NCBI GenBank assembly: GCA_041664165.1
Contig: JBAYLH010000001.1
Location: 9,469-73,468 of the forward strand
Direction: 5' to 3'
Length of the DNA stretch: 64,000 nt
DNA from: Candidatus Buchananbacteria bacterium
GTDB lineage: Bacteria > Patescibacteriota > Patescibacteriia > Buchananbacterales > UBA6539
How positions within the stretch are numbered: position 1 is the stretch's first letter; each line of letters opens with the position of its first letter. A model generated the notes under the pieces. It saw only the letters and a program-made list of their open reading frames with translations. It was not told where the DNA came from and searched no databases. Position numbers and translations under genes: made by a program. This document shows positions 596 through 47,475 of this stretch, in pieces.

Positions 596-600
596 AGATT

Positions 601-6408: not shown

Positions 6409-6476
6409 AACAAGTTTTAATACCCAACTGATTTATATCTAAACTGGTTGGGGGCAAAAAAACTTAATTAATTAAT

Positions 6477-7914: not shown

Positions 7915-8244
7915 TATATATGACGTGAAAGCTTAATAAATGTTACAGTCGTAGCATTTACTATAACTAATTAACTAAAATAAGTCAAACGCTAAAATTG
8001 GCTAATTTACTCATTAATCGCTCAATTATGTTGCTTATTTAATTTTTCTATATTATACTAAATATCGTGATTTGTCCAGGCTAATCTAGACAAATAACCA
8101 TACTTAAACCTGTTTATAACTTAAAACCTAATATTTCAATCAAATTAATTATTTTTCAAAAAATTTCGCCAATATTTCCTTTAACCTAACAAATACAAGT
8201 TAATCAAATACTGCCAAAACTAATCAAAATTAAACCATTCCAAT

Positions 8245-8520: not shown

Positions 8521-8600
8521 GAGATCCCGCCTCCGCCAACCTGCGGCAGGGGCTTCGGCGGGCAGGCAGAAATCAGAGATCAGAAATTAGAAGCGGAAAA
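8521..8600. repeat. GC-rich hairpin segment plus CAGA-rich repeat (solo copy of the family that flanks the 4HB gene at 33.3 kb)
   Basis: Contains cccgcctccgccaacctgcggcaggggcttcggcgggcagg, then cagaaatcagagatcagaaattagaag. Confidence 0.4.
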
Positions 8601-8607
8601 GCCAAAA

Positions 8608-8640
8608 CGCAGAAGCTTATGCTCCTGCGTCTTTTTTTAT
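8608..8640 (+). terminator. Rho-independent terminator
   Basis: acgcag-aagcttatgctc-ctgcgt, then T7. Confidence 0.5.
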
Positions 8641-8653
8641 ATGAGAAAAATTT

Positions 8654-9814
8654 TTACGGCAAATTGCCCAAGGTAACAGTTTTAGTCAAGACTTTACCAG
8701 CTCGCAAAATTTCCAATTCCGTTTGTTCTCCCGGCCGATACTGCATAATCAAATCAGTTAAGCTGCTGGCTTTATCCAGTTGCTGACCATCAACGCTGGT
8801 GATAATATCGTTAGCTAAAATTCCCGCCATCGCTGCCGGACTGCCGGCTTTAGGATTTTGGTAAACTAGCGCTCCCTGATTTAGATTTTGCGTTACCGCC
8901 GGGTCTAAACCAAAAGTCCAAGCTAAGTCCAGATAATTAATCCCTAAAAACGGCCGCTTGATCGGATTATTCTTTAAAACATCCAAAACAATTGACCGAA
9001 ATTGATTTATCGGAATCGCCGCGGTAATTCCTTTTTCGGAGTCCACTTCTTTTACGACTCCAATGACTTCCCCGCCGAGATTTAAAACCGGACTGCCCAA
9101 ATAGCCATTGCCGAAATCACCGCTAAGCGAAATCAACTTTTGGTATTGCTCCGAAGAAATCAAAAAGTTATTTGCCGCCGCCAGCAAGCGATAATTATTA
9201 TTTTTAACATTGCCCACCGTTGCTTCAGTCGAATTATTAACCGCTAAAACCAGCTGGCCTAAAACCAACTCATCGGAATCACCCAAGGTAGCCACCGGCA
9301 GATTAGTCGCGGCAATTTTAATGAAAGAAACGCCGGTTGTCGCATCGCTGACTATTTTTTCGGCCGCAAATGTCTTGGCATTATAAACAACCGCCAATTG
9401 CTGGGGTTTTAGCCCGGCAAGATTTTTGGCATAGCTGACTAGCCAGCCGTCGCTGGTTAAAATAAAGCCATTAGCCTGAAGTTCTTTGACCAGATAAATT
9501 TGACTGAGCTGATTAGTCGAACCCGGCTTTTTCAGGTAGATGCCAACCAATGCCGAGGAAATTTTTTCTATTGTTTTGTTAACCTCAAAATCCTGCTGGA
9601 TGCCTAAAAATTTTTTCACCCGCTGAAGCTCCGGTACGACCGCGGCGGCGTCTTGATTAATATTAACGCTGCCGGCCGAATAGTCTTGCTGCCAAGGATT
9701 GATATAAACGTCCGAAAAAATCTGGCCGACCACCCCGGCGGCAAAACCAAAAATCATTGATAAAACGACAACCTGGGAAATAAACTGATTTTTTTGCTTT
9801 TTAAATAAATTCAT
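8654..9814 (-). CDS. HtrA/DegP-like trypsin-fold serine protease with C-terminal PDZ domain, membrane-anchored
   Basis: 386 aa with an N-terminal TM, a trypsin-like core and a C-terminal PDZ (GALVYQNPKAGSPAAMAGILANDIITSVDGQQL). The catalytic motif region is divergent. Confidence 0.55.
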   Translation of the reverse strand: MNLFKKQKNQFISQVVVLSMIFGFAAGVVGQIFSDVYINPWQQDYSAGSVNINQDAAAVVPELQRVKKFLGIQQDFEVNKTIEKISSALVGIYLKKPGSTNQLSQIYLVKELQANGFILTSDGWLVSYAKNLAGLKPQQLAVVYNAKTFAAEKIVSDATTGVSFIKIAATNLPVATLGDSDELVLGQLVLAVNNSTEATVGNVKNNNYRLLAAANNFLISSEQYQKLISLSGDFGNGYLGSPVLNLGGEVIGVVKEVDSEKGITAAIPINQFRSIVLDVLKNNPIKRPFLGINYLDLAWTFGLDPAVTQNLNQGALVYQNPKAGSPAAMAGILANDIITSVDGQQLDKASSLTDLIMQYRPGEQTELEILRAGKVLTKTVTLGNLP

Positions 9815-9823
9815 AAATTTAAA

Positions 9824-10588
9824 TTAAAACCATTTAGCCGTAGCTAAAATTATAATTAAAGAAACGACGCCGATCGCCAAATAACGAATCACCACTTTTT
9901 TTTCCTTAATACCCAAAAGCCAGTTGCGGGACAAACCGGTGATTAAATAATAACTAATCGTAACAACCAGACCGCTGACATAGACACTGACCGGCAAAAA
10001 ACTGACCACCCAAAAAACTTCCGTTGCCAATAAGGCGGTAATGACAATGTGGCGCCAGCCGGTTTTTATCGTATGGTCGCTGGCCCAAACGATTTGATGG
10101 GTCAAAAAAAGACTGATTAAAGCAAAGGCGGCCAAAAACGGCCATAGCGAAAGGCCAAGAAAAATAATCAGGCTGAAAAAACCAGAAGTCATCAGAAAAA
10201 CCGTCAGCAGATTAATGTTAACTGAGATATTTTCCAGGGAGTGAACCTGGTATTTCGGCCGGAAATGGTACTGAACAAAAATCGTTTCCAAAAATACCCA
10301 GATTAAAGCCACAAAACACCCCAAAAAAATGTGCTTTAAAAAATTGCCCTCGGCAAAAATTAAAAAAATAAAACAGCTGCTTAAAAATAATACCGGGGTT
10401 AAAACATTGCGCCAGAACTTTCCGCTTTTAAAATTATAATCCATTAGCTGATAAATACCCAAAAAAACAATCACCAAACATAGAATAATCGCCCAATAAA
10501 ATTGTTTGGGTAAAGCGAAAACTATTTCAATCAGAAAAAAGATTAGGAAAGAAGAAAGAATTGGAATAAAACGATTGATAATTTTCAT
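9824..10588 (-). CDS. Polytopic membrane protein, function unknown
   Basis: 254 aa with about 8 predicted TM helices. It overlaps its neighbours by 4 bp, which fits an operon. Confidence 0.4.
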   Translation of the reverse strand: MKIINRFIPILSSFLIFFLIEIVFALPKQFYWAIILCLVIVFLGIYQLMDYNFKSGKFWRNVLTPVLFLSSCFIFLIFAEGNFLKHIFLGCFVALIWVFLETIFVQYHFRPKYQVHSLENISVNINLLTVFLMTSGFFSLIIFLGLSLWPFLAAFALISLFLTHQIVWASDHTIKTGWRHIVITALLATEVFWVVSFLPVSVYVSGLVVTISYYLITGLSRNWLLGIKEKKVVIRYLAIGVVSLIIILATAKWF

Positions 10589-11391
10589 TGGCTTGCCGGC
10601 TGGTTAAAATTAAGGCTCCAATCAATATTGCTGGCTTTTATCCTGGCTGCTAATATTTTTTGGATTGATTCGGCGTTAATCATGACTTCAATGACTATTT
10701 TCCCGGAAACGAGTTCAAATTTTTTAAAAACGATATTATCCTTGAGCCAATCAAGTTTGGCCGGATCAATATTAAATTTTTTGACCTGGCTTTTATTAAC
10801 CTGATTAGCATACTGTTTAAGCAGCCAGTCAGCAATAAACGGCGGCAAGCTTAAATCGCCGATTTTGGCTTGAGTAACCTGATAGCTGCCGGCATTATCC
10901 AAAAAATTAGCTTTCATTCTTAAAGTCAGGTTAGCGGTAAAAGGTTTTATCATCAAACCGAATAATTCGATTTCGCCGTTATCAATAATAAATTGGGTGT
11001 TTTGGGCAAACATCGCTTTGGGATCGGCGGCTAATTTTTGCCGGACAAAAAAAGTCAATTCATTTTCCGTCAGCTCGGCATGGAGTATTTTATTCTGCTC
11101 GTCGTAAGAATAAACCACCGACTTTTGGGAAAAATCAGCGGGGTTTTGCGGCGGAATCAGACGCGAAGGCTGGGGCAAGCGGTAAAAAATCGAAGAAAAA
11201 ACCGGTATTTCAATGATTCCGGTTTTAGCGATAACGGCCAAACCGGCAGCTAAAAAAATAACCAGCAAAACGCTAAAAATCAACCAGCAATTGGTTTTTA
11301 ATTTTCGCTTTCTGACTCTCTTCGGCTTTTCCGGCACCGGCAAAGAAGCCTCTGACTTTTGAATTAATTCTTCCAAACTGATTCTTGCCAT
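10585..11391 (-). CDS. Membrane-anchored protein in the pilus gene block (PilN/PilO-like topology), function unknown
   Basis: 268 aa with a basic N-terminus and a single TM (LIFSVLLVIFLAAGLAVIA). Confidence 0.35.
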   Translation of the reverse strand: MARISLEELIQKSEASLPVPEKPKRVRKRKLKTNCWLIFSVLLVIFLAAGLAVIAKTGIIEIPVFSSIFYRLPQPSRLIPPQNPADFSQKSVVYSYDEQNKILHAELTENELTFFVRQKLAADPKAMFAQNTQFIIDNGEIELFGLMIKPFTANLTLRMKANFLDNAGSYQVTQAKIGDLSLPPFIADWLLKQYANQVNKSQVKKFNIDPAKLDWLKDNIVFKKFELVSGKIVIEVMINAESIQKILAARIKASNIDWSLNFNQPASQ

Positions 11392-11392
11392 A

Positions 11393-11866
11393 TTAGCGGA
11401 TAATAATTAGATAATCGGCTTTGTCGGCATTGCCTTCGTTAGAACCGTCTCCGCAAGAATTATTATGAAATTCCGCCTTGGCTGTCTCCATATTTTCTAC
11501 GGAAACCGTCGGAAAAGTCAAGCCATTGCAAAGATTGTCTTTGACGTAATAGTAATAATAATCATTGGCTCCGGTTCCGCCTTTGTCCAGAGGGTCTTTC
11601 GGCAAGGCCGGAAAATATTTTTTAAGCTGGCTATCGACAGCTTCGCCGCGACCCAAATAGCCGCTGTCTGGCGGATAATTACCGTCATTTTCCTGAGCAT
11701 ACATCAACAAAGCCTTAACGTACTGGGAAGCGTCATAAGCCCGTTTAGCATCGTGGCTTTTAGCCTGAGCGCTTCTAAAGGCAACCAAGCCAATCGTCGC
11801 GATTAAAGCGATAATTAAAACCGCAACCATCAATTCAATTAAAGTTATGCCTTGATTTTTTCTCAT
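11393..11866 (-). CDS. Type IV pilin / pseudopilin with class III prepilin signal
   Basis: MRKNQG|ITLIELMVAVLIIALIATIGL is the prepilin peptidase motif (G-1, E+5). Confidence 0.7.
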   Translation of the reverse strand: MRKNQGITLIELMVAVLIIALIATIGLVAFRSAQAKSHDAKRAYDASQYVKALLMYAQENDGNYPPDSGYLGRGEAVDSQLKKYFPALPKDPLDKGGTGANDYYYYYVKDNLCNGLTFPTVSVENMETAKAEFHNNSCGDGSNEGNADKADYLIIIR

Positions 11867-11879
11867 ATAGCTTAAAAAA

Positions 11880-12281
11880 CTAATTAGCTTTTAGCCAGCC
11901 GTACTTAACCTTTAATTCATCGAGTTTGGCCAGGCCTTTATCAATTTTGGCTTGGTCGGCACTGCCTTGACCCTGCTCAATCAGCTCAAAAGCGACTACT
12001 AAATTAAAATGCAAATCCAAGTATTTAGCCGGCACGCGCAAAGCCAAAATCCGGCTTTTAACTCCGGCATAACTTTCATTTTGCCAAACTGGCTTTAAAA
12101 TATCAATTAATTCGGATTCGTATTTGCTTTCCAGTTCCGGTTCGGTTAAAACCGGCGGCTGAGCCGTTTCGTTATCTATCGGCTGAATCGGTTTATTTTT
12201 AACGCAGCCAAAAAGTACCGGCGCTAAAAAAAATAAAATTACAAAAACAAAAAAACTTTTTTTCCGCCCAATTTCAATCAT
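11880..12281 (-). CDS. Putative lipoprotein, function unknown
   Basis: 133 aa with an LFGC lipobox after a hydrophobic signal. Confidence 0.4.
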   Translation of the reverse strand: MIEIGRKKSFFVFVILFFLAPVLFGCVKNKPIQPIDNETAQPPVLTEPELESKYESELIDILKPVWQNESYAGVKSRILALRVPAKYLDLHFNLVVAFELIEQGQGSADQAKIDKGLAKLDELKVKYGWLKAN

Positions 12282-23953: not shown

Positions 23954-24020
23954 GAGCTTGTCATCCAAAACTAATCGCTAATTTCTTGCCTTAATTCTGA
24001 TTAGAAACTATAATTATTCC

Positions 24021-24638
24021 ATGATTACGATAATTATCGATTTTTTAACCAATTTAGTTATCCAAATAATCGGCATTATCGGCTATGCCGGAATTTTTTT
24101 ATTAATGCTGGCCGAAAGCGGCGGCGTACCGATGCCGTCAGAAGTGATTATGCCGTTTTCCGGCTTTCTGGTCGAGGCCGGAAAAATGAATTTTTGGACG
24201 GTAGTTTTAATCGGTACGCTGGGAAATTTAGCCGGTTCCCTTCTAGCTTACTGGATTGGTAAGGCCGGCGGCCGGCCATTAATTGAAAAATGGGGAAAAT
24301 ATATTTTGATTTCAAAACACGACTTGGATTTAGCCGATCACTGGTTTGGCCGCTGGGGCAATTTAACCGTGTTTTTCGGCCGGCTCTTGCCGGTGGTCAG
24401 GACTTATATTTCTTTTCCGGCCGGGATCGCCAAAATGGACCTTAAAAAGTTCAGCTTCTATACTTTCATTGGTGCCCTGCCTTGGTGCATTCTCTTTACC
24501 TGGCTCGGGGTTAAAATGGGCGCTAACTGGGATTTAGTCCGGCAAAAACTCCATAACTTTGATCTGGCAATATTAATTTTAGTAATTTTAATAATTGCTT
24601 TATACGTCTGGCGACATTTGAAAAATAGAAATAAGTAA
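24021..24638 (+). CDS. DedA/SNARE-associated (VTT domain) membrane protein
   Basis: GIFLLMLAESGGVPMPSEVIMPFSGFLV and FFGRLLPVVRTYISFPAG motifs. Confidence 0.75.
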   Translation: MITIIIDFLTNLVIQIIGIIGYAGIFLLMLAESGGVPMPSEVIMPFSGFLVEAGKMNFWTVVLIGTLGNLAGSLLAYWIGKAGGRPLIEKWGKYILISKHDLDLADHWFGRWGNLTVFFGRLLPVVRTYISFPAGIAKMDLKKFSFYTFIGALPWCILFTWLGVKMGANWDLVRQKLHNFDLAILILVILIIALYVWRHLKNRNK

Positions 24639-24657
24639 ACTAAATTTCGGTAACTAA

Positions 24658-24690
24658 AAGAGTCCCGCTGAATCGGGACTCTTTTATGAT
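24658..24690. terminator. Bidirectional terminator between the convergent DedA and HU genes
   Basis: aagagtcccg-ctgaat-cgggactctttt. Confidence 0.5.
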
Positions 24691-24706
24691 GTAAAACTTT
24701 AGTCGT

Positions 24707-24988
24707 TTATAAGACTGCTTCTTTGGCAGCTTTGGCAACGCGGAATTTCACCACGGTTTTAGCCGGAATCTGGATGGTGGCGCCAGTGGCAGGATTGCGG
24801 CCGACTCTGGCTTTGCGAGCGACTTTAACTAATTTGCCAATTCCCGGCACGACAAATTCACCGCTACCTTTGACCTCTTTGTAGGCCAATTCTACCATTT
24901 TGTCCAAGATAGTAGTAACATCTTTTTTGCTTAACTCAGCGCTTTCTGCCAAGGCGGCAAGCAACTGAGCTTTAGACATCTTTGCCAT
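24707..24988 (-). CDS. hup: HU/IHF-family nucleoid-associated DNA-binding protein
   Basis: 93 aa with the RNPATGATIQIPAKTVVKFRVAKAAKEAV arm. Confidence 0.85.
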   Translation of the reverse strand: MAKMSKAQLLAALAESAELSKKDVTTILDKMVELAYKEVKGSGEFVVPGIGKLVKVARKARVGRNPATGATIQIPAKTVVKFRVAKAAKEAVL

Positions 24989-25134
24989 AAGTTTTTATTA
25001 CTTATTAAATAATTATTAGCTTATAGATACATTATACATCAAACTTTTAGAAAAGCCAATAAAACCAAGGGGTTTGAAATAAAATCAACTTTGCCAGACC
25101 ATTTTAAAAATATCAAAATTAGAATACTCGCTCA

Positions 25135-25773
25135 TTAAACCAAATTTTGAGACAATTTACCTTGTCTTTTAAACCCTAACTTTATGGCCGCTAAAATTAC
25201 CAAACCCGCCAAACAAATATAAAAAGGAAAAGCCAGCAAAATAAAATCAAGCCGGCCAACCGCGATACAAGCTAAAAAACCGCCGAGAGCCGTCAGCACC
25301 CAGGCGCTGGCTGTTTCGGTCGCTGGGCTTTGGTAAGATTTTACTACCGTTAAAACCACGCCGATGGCATCGACAAAAATCACCAAAAACAGGGCAATGG
25401 CGGCTTCGCTGGTTAAATACCAAAACCATAGGCTAATGCCGGCACCGACTAACGAAATAATGTCTCTTTTCATCAAACCGCCAATCCCATATTTAACGGC
25501 TAAAATAAAAATAAACAAATCCCCAATCGCCTGCACTCCGGTCAGAATTAAAGAATAAGACGCGCCTTTGGCCAATTGGGAAAAAAAAGAAATCAACCCC
25601 AATATTGCCCAGATTAACCATGACGTTCGCTGAGGTTTTGTCCGGCACCGAAAAATGTCTTTGAGATAAGGCCAAAAAGACAATAAAATTACTAGCCCCG
25701 CTAAATATCCCGCTGTTTCGCTGATCATATTATTTACGCTGTTCTGATCAAATTGAGATGCCATGACTGCCAT
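25135..25773 (-). CDS. Polytopic membrane protein, function unknown
   Basis: 212 aa with about 6 TM helices. Confidence 0.4.
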   Translation of the reverse strand: MAVMASQFDQNSVNNMISETAGYLAGLVILLSFWPYLKDIFRCRTKPQRTSWLIWAILGLISFFSQLAKGASYSLILTGVQAIGDLFIFILAVKYGIGGLMKRDIISLVGAGISLWFWYLTSEAAIALFLVIFVDAIGVVLTVVKSYQSPATETASAWVLTALGGFLACIAVGRLDFILLAFPFYICLAGLVILAAIKLGFKRQGKLSQNLV

Positions 25774-25781
25774 CTCGAAAT

Positions 25782-26765
25782 TTAAAGCAAACCTATTCTG
25801 ATAAAAAATTTTAAATACGGTATTTGTTTTGCCAATTCATCCAATAAAATAACGTATTTTTCCAATGAATTTTCAGTCAGCTCAGGAAAATGTTCTTTTA
25901 AATCTTGCAACAGAAAATTTCTAATATCTTCCAAAGTTTTGCGCTTGGCACTGTCAGCCTCGGTATAAACATTTTCAACCAAACCAAGGTCAATTGAAGT
26001 GATATTCGCTTTTGCCCAAAGCAAATTGGTGCTGCCCTCGTCAACCGAAAAAGAAAAAAAGTTCGTACCATCCCAATCCAAATAAACTCGGCTGCGTTTC
26101 TGCGTATTGGTCAGTATATGGCGCAGCTGGTAAGGATCAACTTTAATCGCATTAAAAGAATTTTTAAAATCTGTCCGCTGATTACTGGCGACAAAACCGA
26201 TCGGCGCAATTCTATCGTTAAAATCATTTGAAGATTGATCAATGGCTTGGGTTTGGAATTTCAGCTCCGTTCTGGTATCAAATTGTCCCGGCGGCGTTAC
26301 CTTGATTTGAACCAGCTCTCTGCCGCTTTTTGCATCAGTTGGGTCAGTGGTGTTAATTCGTAAGCGATGCCGCGCGCTATTGTTGTTTTTATATAGATCA
26401 AGACTTGCGGTATCAAAATAATCATCGGTAAAGATACTGATGTCATCACGTTGCTCACCCTTTAAATTCAGCTCGGGAAAAGCCTGGCTTAATTTCTCAT
26501 TTGATTTAACATAAGTATTGCGAAGATAATCATAAACCTCCTGTGCCTTGCCCTGAGGAATATTAAGGGTGATTTGACTATCAACTCGGGCGGCATTAGT
26601 GCCAAACCCCTCCGAGGAATGCGAGCTTTGGTCGAAAGGATTGTTTATTTTTTGATCGCTACCTGGCTGCTGCGCCCAAAGGTAATAAAAGACACCAAGC
26701 AGCAATAGTAAAAATATAGAAACGGAAAGTACTAATTTTAATTTTTTATTCATATTTTTAAACAT
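25782..26765 (-). CDS. Membrane-anchored/secreted hypothetical protein
   Basis: 327 aa with N-terminal TM VLSVSIFLLLLLGVFYYLW. Confidence 0.4.
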   Translation of the reverse strand: MFKNMNKKLKLVLSVSIFLLLLLGVFYYLWAQQPGSDQKINNPFDQSSHSSEGFGTNAARVDSQITLNIPQGKAQEVYDYLRNTYVKSNEKLSQAFPELNLKGEQRDDISIFTDDYFDTASLDLYKNNNSARHRLRINTTDPTDAKSGRELVQIKVTPPGQFDTRTELKFQTQAIDQSSNDFNDRIAPIGFVASNQRTDFKNSFNAIKVDPYQLRHILTNTQKRSRVYLDWDGTNFFSFSVDEGSTNLLWAKANITSIDLGLVENVYTEADSAKRKTLEDIRNFLLQDLKEHFPELTENSLEKYVILLDELAKQIPYLKFFIRIGLL

Positions 26766-26820
26766 TATAATTATGGCCTAATTCTACCATAAAATCCGAA
26801 TAACGTTAATGTTTTAAATA

Positions 26821-26852
26821 AAAAAAATCCTCCTAACACTTGGCTAGGAGGA
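26821..26852 (-). terminator. Terminator of GC-rich cassette v
   Basis: Minus strand tcctccta-gccaagtgt-taggagga plus T8. Confidence 0.5.
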
Positions 26853-26860
26853 GCTTAACT

Positions 26861-28699
26861 TTAGCGCGCAACCTTCACCGATGCCAAACTCCCGGCAATC
26901 GTCGGCTCGTTGGAGCAAGGATTGCATAGCGGCGGCTCGACACCGCTTGGTATCAGGATTGCCAGCACTTCGGTCAAGTTGGCGTCGTGGTAGTCAGTTT
27001 CGATGTCGCACAAAAACGTACTATCCGCGTTAATAGTCGTCAACGGCCGGTTCAAGTATGGCTTGATCCACCAAGACCCGTAAGCCTTGATGTAAACCGC
27101 TACCCGGCAATCAGCGGGGTTGACGCCACTCACCTTGCCTTGCATCAGGCTAGTACTGCCGGCTGGCGGCAAATAGGTGATTTCAATGCTCGGCACCGTT
27201 ATTATCGGCGGCCAGATTGGCACTGCCAACTGCCAGCCAAAGTCGCTGACCGTTACCACGGTTTCGCTGTTATTTTGCGGACCGTTGTTATCGCTCAACC
27301 ACAGGTTGAAGTGAAATGCCTCATTGCCCGGAACTGGAATGGCTTCCCGGTCATACACCCAGGAACGCACCAGTTTTTCGGCTGGCGGCAAATTCGCCAA
27401 GGTATAGCGGCCGTAATAGGTCCGAAATTCGACATAAGTCGACTGCCACACCAAATAGTGGGTAATGTCCGGCGCCGCGTCCGGCAGCGTAACGTAATAA
27501 CGCTGGACCATGCCCAGCCAAAACGGGTTGATGGCAAACTGGGCGTTATCCGAATCGTTTGCGTTCCCCCACCGGCTGAACTCGAAGTCGAACTCCTTGT
27601 GCTTGATCATTTTCTCCGCATCCGACCAGGTAAAAAGGCCGAAAGTCAGATTCGGATCAAGTAGGTCAACGCGGCCGTGAGTCGAAAAGCAGTAAGTACC
27701 GTAGCCCAAGGATTCTTCGAGAAAAACCTCGCTGCAGTACCAATTGCCGCCAAGTTGGCGCAGGGCCAAATTGATGCCCGAGGAGTCTATCCAGACGCTG
27801 TTTTCCGTGTCGGAGAAGAAGTTCTGGCCCGGATCAATCCGTTGTCCCTCGTCGCTTCGCTTGACCGTCCATGTTCGGCCGGCAAAAGGAATCCGGCGAA
27901 TCGGCAAAATCACTTTCTTGAGCACCGCCGTGACGGTTCGATTGGCCGTCATCGTGGTCGTCGTCGGATTGGCATGAATGTTTGCGACATTGCCAGTCCA
28001 GTAATCAAATTGCCAGCCTTCGGCCGGGTTCGCTTTAACCGTAACTACGGTTCCTTGGTTATAGCGAGCGCTTGACGGCACCACCTCGCCAGATCCGCTC
28101 GGACTAACCATCGTGGTCAGCAAATACGTTGTCGGATTGACCGTAACAAATACCGCCGTGATCGTCCGATTGGCCGTCATCGCCAGCGTCGTCGGATTGG
28201 TAGAAACGTCGGCAACCTCGCCGGTCCAATGGTCAAACTGCCAGCCAGCGGCTGGACTTGCCGTCAAGCTAATCTCTTGGCCGTAAGCAAAAGTGCCACT
28301 GGCCGGGTGGACTGAGCCGCCGTTCGAAGGAACCGCCGCCGTATTCAACTCAACCTCGGCCGGCGGTTCGGTGATGGTAACATTAACCATCTGCTGATCG
28401 ACAATGCCGATGGGGCCATTGAGCATCAGGAAAAAACTGCTCTTTCCAACTTGCCCCATCGCCCTAACCGACATCGTGTTGCCAGTGATACCAACCTGGA
28501 CATATTGGCTGTCAATACCAGTCACACTCCAGGTCAAAATCCGACCAGCGCCGTTTTGGATGTGACCACTCAAGTTGATAGTACTTTCGCCCATCGGCGT
28601 CAGCACTAAATCTGAAACAGGCGGAGAAATCTTGGTCGGATGAGGGCACCCCGCCAAAGCCAACATCACAACGATTACTACCAACATTTTCTTGTACAT
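26861..28699 (-). CDS. Lipoprotein with two InlB-B-repeat (Flg_new-like) domains and a GH16-like glycoside hydrolase domain; GC-rich (~58%) cassette v
   Basis: LALAGC lipobox; duplicated GWQFDHWTGEV / GWQFDYWTGNV segments; EFDFEF fits the GH16 ExDxxE catalytic pattern. Confidence 0.55.
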   Translation of the reverse strand: MYKKMLVVIVVMLALAGCPHPTKISPPVSDLVLTPMGESTINLSGHIQNGAGRILTWSVTGIDSQYVQVGITGNTMSVRAMGQVGKSSFFLMLNGPIGIVDQQMVNVTITEPPAEVELNTAAVPSNGGSVHPASGTFAYGQEISLTASPAAGWQFDHWTGEVADVSTNPTTLAMTANRTITAVFVTVNPTTYLLTTMVSPSGSGEVVPSSARYNQGTVVTVKANPAEGWQFDYWTGNVANIHANPTTTTMTANRTVTAVLKKVILPIRRIPFAGRTWTVKRSDEGQRIDPGQNFFSDTENSVWIDSSGINLALRQLGGNWYCSEVFLEESLGYGTYCFSTHGRVDLLDPNLTFGLFTWSDAEKMIKHKEFDFEFSRWGNANDSDNAQFAINPFWLGMVQRYYVTLPDAAPDITHYLVWQSTYVEFRTYYGRYTLANLPPAEKLVRSWVYDREAIPVPGNEAFHFNLWLSDNNGPQNNSETVVTVSDFGWQLAVPIWPPIITVPSIEITYLPPAGSTSLMQGKVSGVNPADCRVAVYIKAYGSWWIKPYLNRPLTTINADSTFLCDIETDYHDANLTEVLAILIPSGVEPPLCNPCSNEPTIAGSLASVKVAR

Positions 28700-28766
28700 C
28701 TTTCAAACTCCTTGTCCTGTTGCTCCACGTTTTACTACTAATAACTCAGCCAAACCTCTCACCATC

Positions 28767-28795
28767 GGTATACTCCAAAAAAAATTAATTGTCAA
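28767..28795 (-). promoter_or_regulatory. Near-consensus promoter TTGACA-N17-TATACC of cassette v
   Basis: Minus strand TTGACAattaattttttttggagTATACC, about 70-nt leader, RBS aaggag. Confidence 0.45.
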
Positions 28796-28865
28796 ACCAA
28801 AAAAGACCAATAAAACCCGGCCTGTTTGGTACCAAAAAACCGCCCCTTCAAGGCGATTTTCCGTA

Positions 28866-28939
28866 TGGCAGGGGCGGAAGGTGATGCTCCCTCGTCTGCG
28901 GTTTTGGAGACCGCCGTTCTACTGTTGAACTACGCCCCC
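28866..28939 (-). tRNA. tRNA-Trp (anticodon CCA), intact copy with unusual T-loop
   Basis: GGGGGCG acceptor, D-arm GTTC-AACAGTA-GAAC, anticodon arm GCGGT-CTCCAAA-ACCGC, 3' CGCCCCT-G-CCA (CCA encoded). T-loop AGCATCA is atypical. Confidence 0.65.
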
Positions 28940-28954
28940 GTAAAAAACTCCAAC

Positions 28955-29206
28955 CTATTTTAATCCTAATCTTTTCATTAATGCCATATACACTGAACCA
29001 CTTGATTTTATTCCTTTTTCTCTTTTTAACGCCAGATATTTATCATTATATGCTTCATAATACAATAATCTTGGGTTTTTGTCCTTGGTTGTTTTTACCC
29101 GACCTGACAAATGTTCCTCTAACCTCTTTTTAAGATCCGAGGCATAACCAATATAAAAATCTTTATTTTTAATACCATCAATTTTTAATAAATAAACGTA
29201 GTACAT
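28955..29206 (-). CDS. Small GIY-YIG nuclease family protein (copy 1)
   Basis: MYYVYLLKIDGIKNKDFYIGYASDLKKRLEEH is the GIY-YIG motif. 83 aa. Confidence 0.75.
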   Translation of the reverse strand: MYYVYLLKIDGIKNKDFYIGYASDLKKRLEEHLSGRVKTTKDKNPRLLYYEAYNDKYLALKREKGIKSSGSVYMALMKRLGLK

Positions 29207-29211
29207 AATCG

Positions 29212-29312
29212 ACTAGTTTTGGAGACACCCGTCGCTCGCGAGCCACGTCGCACGTGTGCGACTGTGGCGAGCAACGGGTGAGACCGCCGTTCTACTGTTG
29301 AACTACGCCCCC
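29212..29312 (-). pseudogene. Orphan 5' copy of tRNA-Trp (positions 1 to ~41) interrupted by a 58-nt GC-rich hairpin insertion in the anticodon stem-loop
   Basis: gttttggagaccgccgttctactgttgaactacgccccc duplicates 28895-28939. The insert at 29227-29284 is bounded by a 5-bp repeat gagac. Confidence 0.55.
29227..29284. repeat. 58-nt GC-rich imperfect palindrome (hairpin element) inside the orphan tRNA-Trp
   Basis: cacccgtcgctcgc-gagccacgtcgcacgtgtgcgactgtggc-gagcaacgggtg. Confidence 0.55.
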
Positions 29313-29339
29313 ATGGCCAAAAGTCCCGATGGCCGGGAC

Positions 29340-29495
29340 TTACTTGGTTTCTTTATGTGTTACATGCTTTTTACAATGCTTGCAGAATTTTTTCATTTCC
29401 AGTCGGTTCTTAAGAGTCTTTTTATTCTTTTTGGAAAAATAATTCACTCTTTTACAGGCAGTGCATTCTAATTTTATCAGGTTGTCTTGGGACAT
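29340..29495 (-). CDS. rpmG: 50S ribosomal protein L33 (below the ORF-track cutoff)
   Basis: [51 protein letters not shown]. Confidence 0.7.
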
Positions 29496-29560
29496 AAATT
29501 AGGTATTAGGTTATTAGGTGTTAGGTTGCTAGGTATTAGCTGTTAGTTTTAAAGCCAACA
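29496..29560. repeat. (ACCUAA)n-type leader repeat abutting the rpmG start codon
   Basis: Coding strand reads ...acctagcaacctaacacctaataacctaatacctaatttATG. Confidence 0.5.
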
Positions 29561-29666
29561 GCTCCGATTTTAAGCTGGGACGACCTACTTATTTATCCCG
29601 ACTTCTTTATTTTTTTTAAACAATTCGGTACGTCGGGACAAAACAGTTGTTCCACCTGCCCTTGCC

Positions 29667-29700
29667 TTAGCCGACGGGGTGATTTGAACACCCGACCAAT
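29667..29700 (-). pseudogene. tRNA 3'-half-like fragment (T-arm GGGTG-TTCAAAT-CACCC)
   Basis: Canonical T-arm with no matching 5' half nearby. Confidence 0.3.
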
Positions 29701-29729
29701 AGTTTATCCCGATTTTATTTAAAATTTTA

Positions 29730-29803
29730 CTGGAGCCGGGGACAGGAATTGAACCTGCGACCAATAGTTTACAAAACTACTGCTCTACCGCTGAGCTACC
29801 CCG
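29730..29803 (-). tRNA. tRNA-Thr (anticodon UGU)
   Basis: GCCGGGG-TA-GCTCAGCGGTAGAGC-A-GTAGT-TTTGTAA-ACTAT...GCAGG-TTCAATT-CCTGT-CCCCGGC-T-CCA. Confidence 0.85.
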
Positions 29804-29860
29804 GCTCGGGCTAAGGCGGGCAGGTCTACCACTGAACTATCCCGGCTCGCGGGAGCAGGT
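29804..29860 (-). pseudogene. Diverged partial duplicate of a tRNA 5' end (acceptor plus D-arm), possibly a decayed tRNA-Gly
   Basis: gagccgggatagttcagtggtagac resembles the adjacent gagccggggtagctcagcggtagagc. Confidence 0.35.
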
Positions 29861-29865
29861 CTAAA

Positions 29866-29950
29866 TGGTGGGTGGAGCAGGATTCGAACCTACGTAGGCG
29901 TAAGCCAGCTGATTTACAGTCAGCCCTCGTTGACCGCTTGAGTATCCACC
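29866..29950 (-). tRNA. tRNA-Tyr (anticodon GUA), long variable arm
   Basis: GGGTGGA...GCTGA-CTGTAAA-TCAGC, variable arm TGGCTTACGCCTAC, T-arm GTAGG-TTCGAAT-CCTGC, 3' TCCACCC-A-CCA. Confidence 0.85.
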
Positions 29951-29960
29951 CATGGATTTA

Positions 29961-30200
29961 TTATTTCAAAATACTATCTAAATATTTTCTGCCTTGACCT
30001 GATTTTAAAAATTTTTCTCTTTTCATTGTCTCAGCTCTAGTTGAAAACTCTTCTTGATAAACTAACAGCCAAGGTCTCCTTCCTTTGGTATATCTGCACT
30101 TGCTCCGATTATGCTCCTCTATTCTCTTAACGACATTTTCCGTACTGCCAATATACCTATTTAAATATTTTACACTTTTTAAGACATAAACATAATACAT
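29961..30200 (-). CDS. Small GIY-YIG nuclease family protein (copy 2)
   Basis: MYYVYVLKSVKYLNRYIGSTENVVKRIEEH. Start taken at the internal Met at 30200; the track ORF runs to 30266 through GC-rich hairpin DNA. Confidence 0.7.
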   Translation of the reverse strand: MYYVYVLKSVKYLNRYIGSTENVVKRIEEHNRSKCRYTKGRRPWLLVYQEEFSTRAETMKREKFLKSGQGRKYLDSILK

Positions 30201-30202
30201 AG

Positions 30203-30314
30203 CAACATATATATAGTCAGCAAGGTTGGGCGGATTCCCCGCCAGAGCCTGTCTGTCGGCAGACAAGGCGAGTGCGCCTCTTGAGCCAGAGGCTCATCTG
30301 TTTTCGGTATGAGG
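30203..30314. repeat. GC-rich hairpin cluster between GIY-YIG copy 2 and the orphan tRNA-Tyr
   Basis: gcctgtctg-tcgg-cagacaagg; gcctct-tgagcc-agaggc. Confidence 0.4.
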
Positions 30315-30436
30315 CGCAGAACCTACGTAGGCGTAAGCCAGCTGATTTATGATGCCAAAGGCACATCCGCCTTACCCGCCTCTGGTGTGGCCTTCCGGCG
30401 GACAGTCAGCCCTCGTTGACCGCTTGAGTATCCACC
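30315..30436 (-). pseudogene. Orphan degenerate 5' copy of tRNA-Tyr with a 53-nt GC-rich insertion in the anticodon loop (insert 30350-30402)
   Basis: Matches 29884-29950 except for the T-arm end and the insert tgatgccaaaggcacatccgccttacccgcctctggtgtggccttccggcgga, which sits between anticodon positions 34/35. Confidence 0.55.
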
Positions 30437-30503
30437 CATGGATTTATTATTTCAAAATACTATCTAAATATTTTCTGCCCTGGCCTGATTTTAAAAATTT
30501 TTC

Positions 30504-30579
30504 TGGAGCCCACTCGCGGATTTGAACCGCGGACCTACTCCTTACCATGGAGTTGCTCTACCAACTGAGCTAAGTGGGC
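30504..30579 (-). tRNA. tRNA-Thr (anticodon GGU)
   Basis: GCCCACT-TA-GCTCAGTTGGTAGAGC-A-ACTCC-ATGGTAA-GGAGT-AGGTC-CGCGG-TTCAAAT-CCGCG-AGTGGGC-T-CCA. Confidence 0.85.
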
Positions 30580-30591
30580 AAAAAATCAAAA

Positions 30592-31419
30592 TTACTTCTC
30601 TAAATCAGGCAAACTGTCAATTTCCTCTTTCAATTCCGAAAGCTTTTGATTGCCCGGATCGGCCGCCTTTAAATCAGAAAAGGCCTGCCAGGCCAGCTTT
30701 TTGTTCTTTAATATTATACTCATTTTCAATAATAAGTCAAGAAAACGCGGGTTAGTCGGTTCGAGTTCAACTGCTTTTTGAAAATTGCTTAAACTGAAAT
30801 TCTGCTTGTTTTCAAGCTGATAAACCCAGCCAAGATCGGCATAGCAATTGGCTAAGCGGTGTTTATTCGACCCATCTTCGGTTTGACTAACATTTTTATT
30901 CAATAATTTAAGCAAATAGCGGCAAGTCTCCCGCGCTTTTTTATAATCTTTTTGACCCAGATAAACGTCCGCTAAATAATCATAGACATCCAAATTCTGG
31001 GGATCTAATTCAACAATCGAAATGCCGATTTCTTCCGCTCTGGCAAATTCCTGAGCCGCCAGCGCTTTTTCCAGTTCGGCTAATTTATCTTTGACTTGGC
31101 CGCTAATATCAATTTCCTTCAACGGCTGATTTCTTTTTAAACTCTGTTTTTCCAGTTCAAGAGTTTTTTGATAAAAATCTTTCGCCGTAGTTTTAATATT
31201 TTCGACTAGCGGCTTGGAAATATCAACGGTAGCTCGCCTTAGATTGGAATAGCTTCTGGCCAGGCGTTCAATCATAATCCGGTTTTTAACTTTATTTTCC
31301 TTTTCCTTGGCGATTGATTCAATATTAATCGCCGCCAAATTGGGAAACTTTTTAACCACGATAAAAATTATTATCGATAAGCTGATAATAATGATAATTA
31401 AAGGTATGAGATAAAGCAT
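30592..31419 (-). CDS. Membrane-anchored TPR-repeat protein
   Basis: N-terminal TM LYLIPLIIIIISLSIIIFIVV followed by TPR-like repeats (ADVYLGQKDYKKARETCRYLLK). Confidence 0.5.
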   Translation of the reverse strand: MLYLIPLIIIIISLSIIIFIVVKKFPNLAAINIESIAKEKENKVKNRIMIERLARSYSNLRRATVDISKPLVENIKTTAKDFYQKTLELEKQSLKRNQPLKEIDISGQVKDKLAELEKALAAQEFARAEEIGISIVELDPQNLDVYDYLADVYLGQKDYKKARETCRYLLKLLNKNVSQTEDGSNKHRLANCYADLGWVYQLENKQNFSLSNFQKAVELEPTNPRFLDLLLKMSIILKNKKLAWQAFSDLKAADPGNQKLSELKEEIDSLPDLEK

Positions 31420-34585: not shown

Positions 34586-35149
34586 TTGGATACAACACCA
34601 AAAAACCATTTCGCCTTCCTGGTAACACACGGCGAAAAGGAGGATTGTCCAGATCCAGGGATGACGCCGCAAGGTATGAAGCGCGTCGAGTCACTGCGCA
34701 AACCACTGGCCGAATTTCTGCCCAACGGGCCTTCCCAAGTTCATATCGGACTGGGCAAGCGACAACAGGAAGTGGCCGATGCTCTGGGACTGGAAGAACA
34801 CAGCCCCTTTTACTCCGCAGTTTGGGGAGGACCGGAAACAGAGACCAGGCGCGGTGGCAAGTCTTTGATAATGCTGCCAAACGGCCGACTAATTGACTGG
34901 GAACACTACCTGTCAACCATGCATTTGCAGTCGGCGATTTTCCAGGCGATCACTGGCTTACCGGACGGTGCTGTCATCTGTTCCGGCCGACCGGTTCTCA
35001 TCCGGCTCGGTATGGCGCTGACCGACCAATGTTGCCAAAGCGGGGCGTTGTATACCATCCGTTTTACCCCCGGCGACCCCGATTCGATCGAAGTCGAATT
35101 GAAAGTTACCGGCGTCAACCTCGGCGACGACAAAGGCGCGGCAGTTTAA
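34586..35149 (+). CDS. Histidine-phosphatase (SixA/PGAM)-like protein with degenerate catalytic motifs; TTG start; GC-rich cassette iii
   Basis: FLVTHGEKED has Thr in place of the Arg of the RHG motif, and there is no second catalytic His (VICSGRPVL). 187 aa. Confidence 0.45.
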   Translation: MDTTPKNHFAFLVTHGEKEDCPDPGMTPQGMKRVESLRKPLAEFLPNGPSQVHIGLGKRQQEVADALGLEEHSPFYSAVWGGPETETRRGGKSLIMLPNGRLIDWEHYLSTMHLQSAIFQAITGLPDGAVICSGRPVLIRLGMALTDQCCQSGALYTIRFTPGDPDSIEVELKVTGVNLGDDKGAAV

Positions 35150-45815: not shown

Positions 45816-47459
45816 TCAAGCATGAATAGCCGAGACAATTTGCCCAGTACTGAAGCGATGCCGACAGTAAGCACAGTCGAAACTGGTCTTACCATCATAC
45901 GAATTGACATGAAGAAAACTTTCAGCTTCCGGGTCAATTCGGGTCACACAAGCTTCGTTGGGGCATATAAAGATCCTCGCAACTGCGGTTGGCGGACGAA
46001 ACATCAGCTTGCGATACAGACTTTCCTTCAATTCAATAACCCGCAAACTACCGACCAAGAGTGTCAGCGCCGCCAACACATCCTCTGACACAAACGCATC
46101 GGGCAAAAAGACAATATCCTTTCTACCCATTTCAGTTGACCTCTGGCGCTGAGCAATAATACTTGAGCTGCCAAGTCCTCCATGCACACCGGCACGGTTA
46201 ATAACGGCATCAACCATCAACCCAAAACCAGCCGTAATCCGATCAAGCACCATTCCCTTGTCTAAAGGATTAATAGCACGCTGTTCCGCTTGCCATCGTT
46301 CCTGCATTTTCTGCCAGTGGCTATGAATCTCCTCTGACGCCAAAACATCATAGGGAAACGATTTTGGAATGGTCAGCAAGTCCATATGCTGTTTTCGGTG
46401 CCCCCAACACATCTGGAAAACCGCCGTACGAGTTGGCGAACCCATTATTGCTTGTATATCCATAATAACCTGAGATTCGTTCCATATTGCCGGATCAATC
46501 ATCGGCCGCAAGACATCAAGCGGTTGAGCATCCATAATCAATGCCTCAGACTTATCAATAAATCGCCTATTAACCTGAATGGCCGAAAGAATAGCCTCAG
46601 CATCAGCGATAGTCATAACATTGCCCAACCGTTCGATTTGCGTTCGAATAGTATAGACAACATTATAAGCCACAGCATCGTCGAGCTTATCAGACACTGC
46701 AACGCGAAGACCCTGACATCGCCAAGCTTCAACCTGAAAAGAGTCAGGTGCAACCAACAGATATTGAATCTTGAAGTGCCGGCCTAAATCAAGCCAGCTG
46801 TTAGTTACCCGGCTATTACGCAAATCACCGACCAGTGCAATTTTCAGATTATCAAAGTGATTGGTAATAAACTCCGCCAAATCATCATCTGTGAGCTGTG
46901 TCAGACTAGATTCCAACCGCGCTACGCCAATTTCATTATTGGACGTCATTCCCAGGGCATGAGCAACAATCGTTACCATATCAAGCAGCACTTGCGTCGG
47001 ATGATTTTGCCGCCCGTCGCCGCCATTGATAATTGGCGTCTCCCGAAACCATTCAGGAAAACGACTAGATTCCCGCTCAAGATACAATGCCGCCTGCGTC
47101 GCATAACCTTCAACTGTTGTACGATAGCACATCATCCGATTCTGCTGTTGAATCGCCGTAATGGTTGCACGCGTTGGCGGTTCACCCTTCTTTAAGCTAC
47201 TAGTCTCTGGCGTAATCGGATTTGAACAACGAAAACCAGCCCGGACAGCGGCTTCTCTTAGAGTCCCAATCGTCCGCGAAGATGGTTCCTCAAACAAAAA
47301 TCCAACCTGAGGTACTAACCATCCGTCGCTGAATTCCAGTCGCAATTCGGGAGGTGGCAACTGATTACGGTAGTAGTAAGGCACCAAACGCAGCGCCCGC
47401 ACCACAACAGCGAGAATTTCATCTCGTGTCAATAAGTTTATTCCAATACAATGTTTCAT
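45816..47459 (-). CDS. pyrB: Aspartate carbamoyltransferase, fused catalytic (PyrB) and regulatory (PyrI) chains
   Basis: STRTR-like FEEPSSRTIGTL and HPTQ motifs in the N-terminal 300 aa. C-terminal EMGRKDIVFLPDAFVSEDVL...ICPNEACVTR...DCAYCRHRF matches the PyrI allosteric and zinc domains. Start taken at MKHCIGINLL with RBS gaaggagg; the track ORF extends to 47558. Confidence 0.8.
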   Translation of the reverse strand: MKHCIGINLLTRDEILAVVVRALRLVPYYYRNQLPPPELRLEFSDGWLVPQVGFLFEEPSSRTIGTLREAAVRAGFRCSNPITPETSSLKKGEPPTRATITAIQQQNRMMCYRTTVEGYATQAALYLERESSRFPEWFRETPIINGGDGRQNHPTQVLLDMVTIVAHALGMTSNNEIGVARLESSLTQLTDDDLAEFITNHFDNLKIALVGDLRNSRVTNSWLDLGRHFKIQYLLVAPDSFQVEAWRCQGLRVAVSDKLDDAVAYNVVYTIRTQIERLGNVMTIADAEAILSAIQVNRRFIDKSEALIMDAQPLDVLRPMIDPAIWNESQVIMDIQAIMGSPTRTAVFQMCWGHRKQHMDLLTIPKSFPYDVLASEEIHSHWQKMQERWQAEQRAINPLDKGMVLDRITAGFGLMVDAVINRAGVHGGLGSSSIIAQRQRSTEMGRKDIVFLPDAFVSEDVLAALTLLVGSLRVIELKESLYRKLMFRPPTAVARIFICPNEACVTRIDPEAESFLHVNSYDGKTSFDCAYCRHRFSTGQIVSAIHA

Positions 47460-47475
47460 AATTTCCCTACCTCCT

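Follow-up and report, generated by a model that had tools for sequence, protein, structure and literature searches.

A GH16-like, putatively lipid-anchored surface protein of likely foreign origin in Candidatus Buchananbacteria

The gene downstream of tRNA-Trp

The window, a 64,000-nt stretch of a Candidatus Buchananbacteria contig, carries on its minus strand, downstream of a tRNA-Trp gene, a 612-aa open reading frame (ORF) that NCBI labels “hypothetical protein” in metagenome-assembled genomes (MAGs) of Patescibacteria and “Ca. Buchananbacteria.” The gene and the signals around it are as follows.

28866..28939, minus strand: tRNA-Trp, intact according to both ARAGORN and Rfam (52 bits)
28767..28795, minus strand: promoter-like site TTGACA-17-TATACC, read from the sequence, with a perfect -35 and an imperfect -10 hexamer
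28708..28713, minus strand: Shine-Dalgarno sequence AAGGAG, 8 nt 5' of the ATG
26861..28699, minus strand: 612-aa ORF with an ATG start (NCBI MFA6215748.1 / MFA6381674.1)
26818..26852, minus strand: intrinsic-terminator-like hairpin and T-run, with a 10-bp stem (26852..26828) followed by T8, 9 nt past the stop codon

An earlier note on this DNA had described the 612-aa ORF, a terminator of its own at 26821-26852, and an intact tRNA-Trp nearby, all of which were recovered here. Its consensus promoter at 28767-28795 is present and has a perfect -35 hexamer, but the -10 hexamer departs from consensus; a consensus promoter scan did not list the site because this hexamer ends in C instead of T. Likewise, the distance of about 70 bp that it gave to tRNA-Trp is true of the -35 box, which lies 70 nt from the 3' end of the tRNA, whereas the start codon lies 166 nt away. 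The gene and both of its junctions recur with 100% identity in L003, an independent Logan assembly, and the same junctions are present in two NCBI MAGs. These identical junctions rule out an assembly chimera, and the gene is a genuine part of the genome.

Domain architecture and the GH16-like fold

A search of 5.8 billion proteins yielded a single relative with more than 45% identity, the orthologue P0002, which is 64 to 68% identical and is encoded on a related contig of the CPR (Patescibacteria). The protein divides into the following segments.

28646..28699, minus strand: lipobox-bearing signal peptide, aa 1-18, MYKKMLVVIVVMLALAGC, predicted to be lipidated at Cys18
28355..28645, minus strand: N-terminal region, aa 19-115, beta-rich and possibly Ig-like, without a counterpart in P0002
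28142..28345, minus strand: InlB B-repeat copy 1 (Flg_new_2), aa 119-186, the best-scoring PF18998 stretch
27926..28129, minus strand: second InlB B-repeat (Flg_new_2), about aa 191-258, also present in P0002
27224..27904, minus strand: GH16-like beta-jelly-roll catalytic domain, about aa 266-492 (AlphaFold, Foldseek, family profile, dN/dS of 0.07)
27581..27595, minus strand: predicted catalytic motif E369-F-D371-F-E373, aligned to EIDIE of 1byh/1gbg
26864..27202, minus strand: C-terminal beta-sandwich, about aa 500-612, a near-orphan of about seven strands (pLDDT of 54 to 84)

The N terminus consists of a positive n-region (MYKK), a hydrophobic h-region (MLVVIVVMLA), and the lipobox LAGC with Cys18, which fits the pattern [LVI][ASTVI][GAS]C and agrees with the lipoprotein signal LALAGC noted earlier. 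P0002 also has a lipobox (LVGC), and the 612-aa protein is the only one among the 66 ORFs of the window with a lipobox-like N terminus. With Pfam LPAM_1, the score is 14.8 bits, short of the cutoff of 20. Judged by the lipobox pattern, the protein is probably lipid anchored. The following region (aa 19-115) has no Pfam match, and the full-length AlphaFold model gives only low-confidence strands there; the N-terminal half of the model is of low confidence, with a pLDDT of <50 at aa 72-220, and it is therefore uninformative on the N-terminal region and on the fold of the repeats.

The two repeats are surface modules of the InlB B-repeat type and match PF18998 (Flg_new_2) in two stretches far above the Pfam cutoff (E = 3.4e-29; 101.1 bits versus 23.6). 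They correspond to a 104-nt DNA repeat (27924-28027 and 28152-28255) whose copies are 77% identical. The earlier claim of two InlB-B/Flg_new modules is thus correct as to their number, but the family is PF18998 and not PF09479, the classical Flg_new model suggested for checking it, to which the protein has no match in Pfam at E ≤ 10; the NCBIfam model TIGR02543 (Listeria-Bacteroides repeat) also stays below significance (13.3 bits; cutoff, 20.95). The second copy ends in TAVL rather than in the TAVF that had been given for the repeats. Within a set of 84 catalytic-domain homologs, PF18998 is confined to P0002 and to the 90%-identity cluster of the protein itself (P0001). The C-terminal domain is shared, in the homolog search, only with P0002 and with P0101, a stand-alone protein of 114 aa encoded on a GC-rich contig, and it is possibly carbohydrate binding.

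The catalytic domain is predicted with high confidence (pLDDT of 90 to 98), and the structure prediction that the earlier note had recommended supports its GH16 assignment: in a Foldseek search of the PDB, ranks 1 to 27 are all GH16 proteins (E = 1.6e-6 to 1.3e-4; probability of 1.0), with moderate TM-scores of 0.38 to 0.64 as normalized to the target. The best structural matches are GH16_3 laminarinases and mixed-linkage glucanases (BoGH16MLG, 7KR6; ULam111, 5WUT), which are secreted or surface-located endo-glycanases, as is predicted for the 612-aa protein, although identity to the catalytic domain in the structural alignments is only 8 to 19% and the clade is separate. GH16_3 enzymes use a bulged ExDxxE motif. 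The string EFDFEF, which had been read as ExDxxE, is indeed found at aa 369-374, but its motif type is ExDxE, that of lichenases and XTH enzymes.

Lichenases (the GH16 1,3-1,4-beta-glucanases of Bacillus and Paenibacillus; 1BYH, 1GBG, and 1MAC) have the same beta-jelly-roll fold, and they align with the ExDxE strand residue for residue (REIDIEF in the family consensus, DEIDIEF in lichenases), as well as with the preceding GYG-x-Y strand; the family motif differs in running on as SRWGN. This likeness is detectable by profile only: a profile of 81 homologs matches 1byh, 1gbg, and 1mac among PDB sequences (E of about 3e-5), and phmmer with the 612-aa protein returned no matches to the same sequences. 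Compared with lichenases, the 612-aa protein adds the lipobox, the N-terminal region, the two InlB-B repeats, and the C-terminal beta-sandwich.

The protein on its own has no match to the Pfam GH16 model, PF00722, even at E ≤ 10, so that the HMM match on which the earlier note had staked its assignment is absent, and a search of NCBIfam found no GH16 model. Because the protein alone fails the PF00722 cutoff, we call it GH16-like. The GH16 kinship is supported by the family profile, by the predicted structure, and by the family member P0102, which passes the PF00722 gathering cutoff (38.4 bits versus 22). PF00722 is also matched weakly by 10 of the 81 family members, and two members were named GH16 by their sources.

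In alignments of 81, 44, and 10 sequences (A1, A2, and A3), the E, D, and E of the motif either do not vary or are conserved to at least 90%. E369 is predicted to be the nucleophile, D371 the helper Asp, and E373 the acid/base; these roles, like the hydrolase activity itself, we infer. Between the two orthologues, dN/dS is 0.16 overall and falls to 0.07 for the catalytic domain, indicating purifying selection, which argues for function. Its motif being intact and the purifying selection strong, the protein appears to be a credible enzyme. These observations also bear on the idea that it is a noncatalytic GH16-fold lectin or adhesin, with glycan binding but no cleavage, as has been reported for the mycobacterial protein Rv0315. 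The best structural matches include Rv0315 and its orthologues (4wzf, 4xxp, and 5dxd; 4WZF has a similar fold score, with an E value of 1.8e-6), and the InlB-B repeats are of an adhesin type. However, whereas 4WZF is titled a “pseudo” beta-1,3-glucanase, the present family keeps the invariant E-x-D-x-E, aligned to lichenase EIDIE, and the catalytic domain is strongly constrained. A purely binding role thus seems very improbable.

Composition, distribution, and origin

The GC content is lower than the 58% previously reported: the ORF has 54.3%, the segment 26820-28940 has 53.2%, and the richest 300 nt reach 59.7%. Comparison with host genes, as the earlier note had proposed, gave a GC3 of 0.657 against 0.460 ± 0.056 for 51 ORFs of the window (z of about +3.5), and this GC3 of ~0.66 is the highest in the window. 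By codon-usage likelihood, the gene is only moderately atypical (z of -1.9; 5th of 66 ORFs), and pyrD/pyrK are as atypical. Elsewhere, the GC3 of the domain tracks that of the host genome (range of 0.18 to 0.97 in 80 other genomes), and the high GC3 is therefore not intrinsic to the family. Expression-linked codon bias is ruled out as its source by HU and L33, highly expressed genes of the window whose GC3 values are 0.49 and 0.40.

The clade occurs across many phyla but is nearly missing from the CPR. Patescibacteria are absent from the best 80 of at least 572 loci in GTDB, the closest of which is 45% identical, and no homologs with between 45% and 64% identity were found anywhere searched. 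Among 2.9 million viral contigs, there was one weak partial match, which speaks against a viral vector. Synteny with the relatives L086 and L085 stops at tRNA-Trp, downstream of which both have other genes; the sequence downstream of tRNA-Trp differs in three relatives. The composition, the phyletic pattern, and the synteny break make a foreign origin of the gene likely, in keeping with the earlier reading of its composition as a sign of acquisition. Horizontal gain of glycanase genes is a common event. The gene would have entered a sublineage of Buchananbacteria by horizontal transfer and would now sit, as a monocistronic unit, in a variable region that follows the tRNA cluster on its downstream side.

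Synonymous divergence between the gene and P0002 is saturated, and the GC3 of both is 0.66 to 0.69, a combination that is not well explained by a single old transfer followed by amelioration; with the same high GC3 in the two despite saturated dS, the acquisition is not demonstrably recent. The retained GC3 could instead reflect a native, vertically inherited CPR gene in which selection or a local mutation bias keeps GC3 high. Such a gene would fit with the position of both orthologues, a few kilobases upstream of HU on the same strand, and with the modest anomaly in codon likelihood. However, vertical inheritance does not account for the absence of Patescibacteria from the best GTDB loci, for the empty identity range, for the tracking of host GC3 by the family elsewhere, or for the lack of high GC3 in highly expressed genes of the window, and we regard it as unlikely.

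As to how a foreign gene may have arrived, the proximity of its start to the tRNA, its atypical composition, and the variable content of the relatives downstream of tRNA-Trp would all suit a gene carried by an integrase-mediated genomic island that targets the tRNA-Trp 3' end. However, no integrase or recombinase domain was found in the neighboring genes (those for proteins of 327 aa and 212 aa, HU, and VTT/DedA), no direct repeat of the tRNA 3' end or att-like repeat is present within 24000-31000, the family is nearly missing from viral contigs, and no tRNA is found on the 8-kb contig that carries P0002 in a related genome. An island of this type is therefore highly unlikely, and of the earlier description of the gene as inserted beside tRNA-Trp, the synteny break at that position is what holds. 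The only repeat of tRNA-Trp covers its 5' 33 nt and lies beyond the GIY-YIG gene, which is bracketed by the duplication. The 327-aa and 212-aa neighbors have no Pfam domain, and the 327-aa downstream neighbor, used as a synteny probe, recovered no relatives in metagenome contigs.

The GH16-like clade and a proposed role for the protein

A profile of the catalytic domain recovers only 4,383 clusters at 50% identity. The scan of genomes was based on the domain-only alignment of 44 sequences. The clade is distinct, GH16-like, and largely unannotated, with Pfam and NCBIfam missing most members, and no characterized member was found. The gene also flags a sizeable clade that is missed by standard domain libraries. 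Many members carry T9SS or other secretion or surface domains, and flavobacterial members occur in SusC/SusD loci together with NagA, NagB, GH20, a CBM96 protein, and a heparinase-like lyase.

It is fairly probable that the gene encodes a Sec-exported, probably lipid-anchored surface glycoside hydrolase with a GH16 fold that was acquired horizontally. Following export via Sec, the protein would be cut at Cys18 by signal-peptidase-II-type processing and tethered by its lipid anchor on the outer face of the membrane. The beta-rich N-terminal region and the two InlB-B repeats could serve as a stalk or adhesion segment that holds out the jelly-roll domain, which would cleave a beta-linked glycan by a retaining double-displacement mechanism, and the C-terminal beta-sandwich may bind the substrate.

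The enzyme could also be a transglycosylase rather than a hydrolase, one that remodels or cross-links an envelope glycan of the cell itself or of a host, as do GH16 enzymes of the ExDxE type such as XTH and Crh. XTH and EG16 enzymes share the ExDxE motif type, the Foldseek matches include structures of EG16 and of a xyloglucanase (5dze and 2vh9), and membrane tethering would fit envelope work. However, Flavobacteriaceae members of the clade lie in catabolic SusC/SusD loci, the T9SS, secretion, and surface domains of many members are typical of degradative enzymes, and the closest sequence-profile matches are the hydrolytic lichenases, all of which make a transglycosylase unlikely.

The only informative genomic settings of the clade point to amino-sugar-containing glycans. 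Out of 80 loci, the association is confined to a single PUL clade of Flavobacteriaceae (6 loci) and a locus from Bacillaceae, which makes it a lead and not a clade-wide rule. Because of the flavobacterial gene content, we suggest as a speculative and unlikely extension that the target of the clade is a hexosamine- or uronic-acid-containing glycan and not a plain beta-glucan, and that the CPR bacterium strips amino sugars from the surface polysaccharide of a host or neighbor with a membrane-tethered enzyme. If so, the enzyme would supply cell wall precursors that a reduced genome may be unable to make. The secreted glucanase that the earlier note envisaged, with a host cell wall or glycan as its target, is a conjecture; to our knowledge, hydrolysis of peptidoglycan is not a known activity of GH16 enzymes.

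The metabolism of CPR bacteria is minimal, and they are believed to live at the expense of other cells; each secreted, surface-tethered hydrolase is therefore a candidate tool of this lifestyle. The present gene is rare in the CPR and was probably imported from another phylum. GH16 genes as such are already known from CPR episymbionts: GH16_3 genes have been reported from oral episymbiotic members of the Patescibacteria (PMC13352502).

GH16-like domain and architecture of the 612-aa protein

Profile and structure comparisons indicate that aa ~266-492 of the 612-aa protein, which is named hypothetical at NCBI and is encoded in a Patescibacteria MAG labelled Ca. Buchananbacteria, adopt the GH16 fold and are homologous to GH16; we term the domain "GH16-like" rather than a formal CAZy member. 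The gene and its product are laid out as follows.

Features of the gene (window coordinates) and of the protein (aa)
26861..28699, minus strand: 612-aa ORF
8 nt upstream of the ATG of the ORF: Shine-Dalgarno sequence AAGGAG
28795..28767, minus strand: promoter-like site, TTGACA-17-TATACC
26852..26828: strong terminator-like hairpin (10-bp stem and T8), starting 9 nt past the stop codon
28866..28939, minus strand: tRNA-Trp, intact by ARAGORN and Rfam
aa 1-18: lipoprotein-type signal peptide MYKKMLVVIVVMLALAGC with lipobox LAGC
aa 19-115: beta-rich, unassigned N-terminal region, missing from P0002
aa 119-186: InlB B-repeat copy 1 (Flg_new_2, PF18998), the best-scoring Pfam stretch
aa ~191-258: InlB B-repeat copy 2 (Flg_new_2, PF18998), placed by the analyst
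aa ~266-492: candidate catalytic domain
aa ~500-612: C-terminal beta-sandwich of ~7 strands (structure prediction, moderate confidence)

The earlier note, made from the sequence alone, had proposed a GH16 enzyme with an ExDxxE motif, to be checked with HMMs. The single protein did not pass that check, being matched neither by PF00722 (E ≤ 10) nor by NCBIfam nor by phmmer against PDB sequences, and the motif is of the ExDxE type (EFDFE; E369, D371, and E373). The evidence for GH16 comes from the family and from a structure model. A search with aa 250-612 recovered 84 homologs, most of them unannotated and two named GH16 by their sources, and their alignment has the consensus REIDIExSRWGN, in which both Glu and the Asp are invariant or nearly so. 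The family profile matches Bacillus-type lichenase structures (1byh, 1gbg, and 1mac; E ~3e-5), aligning the family EIDIEF with the catalytic EIDIEF of the lichenases. PF00722 matches weakly in 10 of 81 family members, and one member, P0102, exceeds its gathering cutoff (38.4 bits versus 22). The structure prediction that the note had called for, an alignment-based AlphaFold model, has a pLDDT of 90-98 over the candidate catalytic domain, and in a Foldseek search of the PDB GH16 enzymes fill all of its top 27 places (BoGH16MLG, mycobacterial beta-1,3-glucanases, laminarinase, EG16, O-glycanases, and lichenases).

The lipoprotein signal read in the earlier note agrees with the lipobox and with an equivalent one (LVGC) in P0002, an orthologue (64-68% identical) on an 8-kb contig of a related CPR organism. 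Pfam LPAM_1 scores under its cutoff in the 612-aa protein. Its two Flg_new/InlB repeats stand as two PF18998 stretches (E 3.4e-29, Pfam) with a common 104-nt DNA core at 77% identity, but not as PF09479, which was not significant; nor was TIGR02543. Among the 84 homologs, Flg_new_2 and the catalytic domain occur together only in the protein's own cluster and P0002. The only relatives found for the C-terminal domain are P0002 and one stand-alone protein of 114 aa, encoded on a GC-rich contig. The terminator and the intact tRNA-Trp were both recovered. A promoter-like sequence does lie at 28767-28795, but "consensus" is too strong a word for it, since its -10 hexamer has C as the last base, which is why a consensus promoter scan did not list the site. 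The spacing of ~70 bp to tRNA-Trp holds for the -35 box (70 nt from the tRNA 3' end) but not for the start codon (166 nt).

Probable foreign origin and genomic neighbourhood

Several lines of sequence evidence support a foreign origin of the gene, as the earlier note had proposed. Its GC3 is 0.657, the top value in the window, versus 0.460 ± 0.056 for 51 other window ORFs, and the HU and L33 genes have ordinary GC3. In 80 other genomes the GC3 of the catalytic domain tracks the host genome (0.18 to 0.97), and thus the family is not inherently high in GC3. Furthermore, homologs are missing between 45% and 64% identity. The GC of the ORF, 54.3%, is lower than the 58% claimed (the interval cited is at 53.2%, and its richest 300 nt at 59.7%). 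Synonymous codon-choice likelihood is a milder anomaly than GC3 (z = -1.9, rank 5 of 66 ORFs) and is matched by the pyrD/pyrK genes. These genes (DHO_dh and DHODB_Fe-S_bind, the latter pyrK-like) and an ORF upstream, at 45816-49177, are 47-53% GC, with synonymous codon usage atypical to the same degree as that of the GH16-like gene. We also found a 162-aa ORF at 34661-35149 (plus strand; 56.9% GC, GC3 0.63) with very atypical codon usage. Of the 51 longest ORFs in the window, only this and one other lie on the plus strand. It has no Pfam match, there is no Rfam family at the site, and it could be a spurious ORF or a further foreign gene.

An assembly artefact is ruled out by a Logan contig from another run (100% identity; tRNA-Trp, the 612-aa gene, and then HU) and by two NCBI MAG contigs with the same neighbouring genes. 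Two relatives, L085 and L086, share with the window an upstream block of TPI, a TPR protein, tRNA-Thr/Tyr/Thr, L33, and tRNA-Trp. Past tRNA-Trp, L086 encodes a DUF333/Gmad2/Germane protein, with no match to the window over 10 kb downstream, and L085 a small Cys-rich ORF. Thus, tRNA-Trp marks a synteny breakpoint. This comparison, suggested by the earlier note, yielded other genes at the site. No integrase was found among the neighbouring genes examined, and the gene is not flanked by direct repeats of the tRNA. The family is essentially absent from the viral contigs searched.

P0002 is likewise a GC-rich block among neighbours of 26-35% GC; its contig carries no tRNA, and an HU gene follows it on the same strand at a distance of a few kb. 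This HU gene is 76% identical to that of the window in nucleotides and ~79% in protein (tblastx), and the nucleotide match reaches ~80 nt into the sequence upstream of HU. Directly 3' of P0002 (contig positions 3000-5400), four small genes (one DUF559, three without a Pfam match) of 26-35% GC and GC3 0.21-0.27 look like a second insertion, this one AT-rich, into the same variable region.

One ancient transfer followed by amelioration would not explain both orthologues well. Synonymous divergence between them is saturated (pS 0.68, dS ~1.75), yet GC3 is still 0.66-0.69 in both, whereas amelioration should have brought it closer to 0.46. This pattern may reflect two independent transfers from unsampled but related donors, a CPR-to-CPR transfer, or selection on GC3.

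The GH16-like family, its predicted function, and its possible substrate

In a search space of 1.84 billion representatives, a domain-only profile recovered 4,383 clusters at 50% identity (E ≤ 1e-3), 2,033 of them at E ≤ 1e-30. This number was judged too few to contain mainstream GH16, and the family is therefore judged to be a separate divergent clade. At least 572 loci in GTDB species representatives encode a relative; the best 80 belong to Planctomycetota, Verrucomicrobiota, Acidobacteriota, Bacteroidota, Bacillaceae, Chloroflexota, and a few Archaea, with no Patescibacteria genome among these 80 and only 45% identity in the best of them. The domain is joined to varied partners, among them T9SS tails, Ig-like domains, PKD, and CARDB. 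GH16_3 genes were reported earlier in oral episymbiotic Patescibacteria (PMC13352502), and a GH16-type enzyme in CPR is thus not new in kind. Particular to the present case are a divergent clade that Pfam and NCBIfam do not recognise in most members, the architecture of lipobox, Flg_new_2, and near-orphan C-terminal module, and a gene of foreign composition that lies next to a tRNA cluster in a variable region.

The dN/dS ratio (0.16 for the whole protein, 0.07 for the catalytic domain) indicates that the gene is maintained. GH16 enzymes use a retaining mechanism with a Glu nucleophile, a Glu acid/base, and an assisting Asp; by homology, E369, E373, and D371, respectively, are predicted to fill these roles. 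The signal peptide and lipobox would provide export and membrane tethering, the InlB-B repeats would serve as a stalk or for adhesion, and the C-terminal sandwich may be a binding module.

The only informative genomic contexts are those of homologs at 35-40% identity. A family member without a Pfam match lies inside a conserved SusC/SusD locus in six Flavobacteriaceae genomes.

Flavobacteriaceae PUL members
L029, L061, L077, L079, L081, and L082: ~150-12000 in each

The PUL encodes SusC, SusD, a CBM96/fasciclin/cadherin-like protein, the GH16-like member, NagB-like, GH20, and NagA-like proteins, a sodium:solute symporter (SSF), and LacI; that of Salegentibacter also holds a heparinase II/III-like lyase. 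The family member of one Bacillaceae genome adjoins nagB and nagA. These contexts (only 7 of 80 loci), together with the alginate-binding founding member of CBM96 (PMC9971899), hint that the substrate is an acidic glycan with hexosamine residues and not a simple beta-glucan. None of the results ties the protein to a host cell wall, a possible target named in the earlier note. The Flavobacteriaceae PUL is a candidate locus in which to seek the clade's substrate.

GIY-YIG genes and tRNA duplications

The tRNA-Trp at 28866-28939 has an encoded CCA end and an unusual T-arm/T-loop (GAGGG-AGCATCA-CCTTC). Its T-arm and acceptor 23-mer occurs in only three metagenome contigs, every one with the same tRNA cluster, and is therefore a useful lineage marker. 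Within 28955-29312, a GIY-YIG gene (28955..29206, minus strand; PF01541; GC3 0.25) is flanked on one side by the intact tRNA-Trp and on the other by an exact 33-nt copy of the 5' part of that tRNA (29280-29312). Beyond nt 33, the copy runs on for ~54 nt, with the palindrome GGCTCGCGAGC among them, and then TCTCCAAAAC appears again. In L085, a closely similar palindrome, CGTCGCTCGCGAGCGACG, lies directly 3' of the intact tRNA-Trp, and therefore the ancestral tRNA-Trp may survive, together with its trailer, as the remnant, and the GIY-YIG gene and the intact tRNA-Trp may have arrived later. At this site GIY-YIG is present in a third relative, L084, and missing in L085 and L086.

A similar bracketing is seen within 29866-30504, around a second GIY-YIG gene (29961..30266, minus strand; PF01541); in L086 the four tRNAs stand back to back, with no GIY-YIG. 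The upstream duplicate comprises the 5' 66 nt of tRNA-Tyr and the last ~58 nt of a GIY-YIG ORF, with 29916-30018 matching 30402-30504 (98%) and 29886-29916 matching 30319-30349 (100%). The tRNA-Tyr copy is broken near the anticodon loop by a 52-nt insert.
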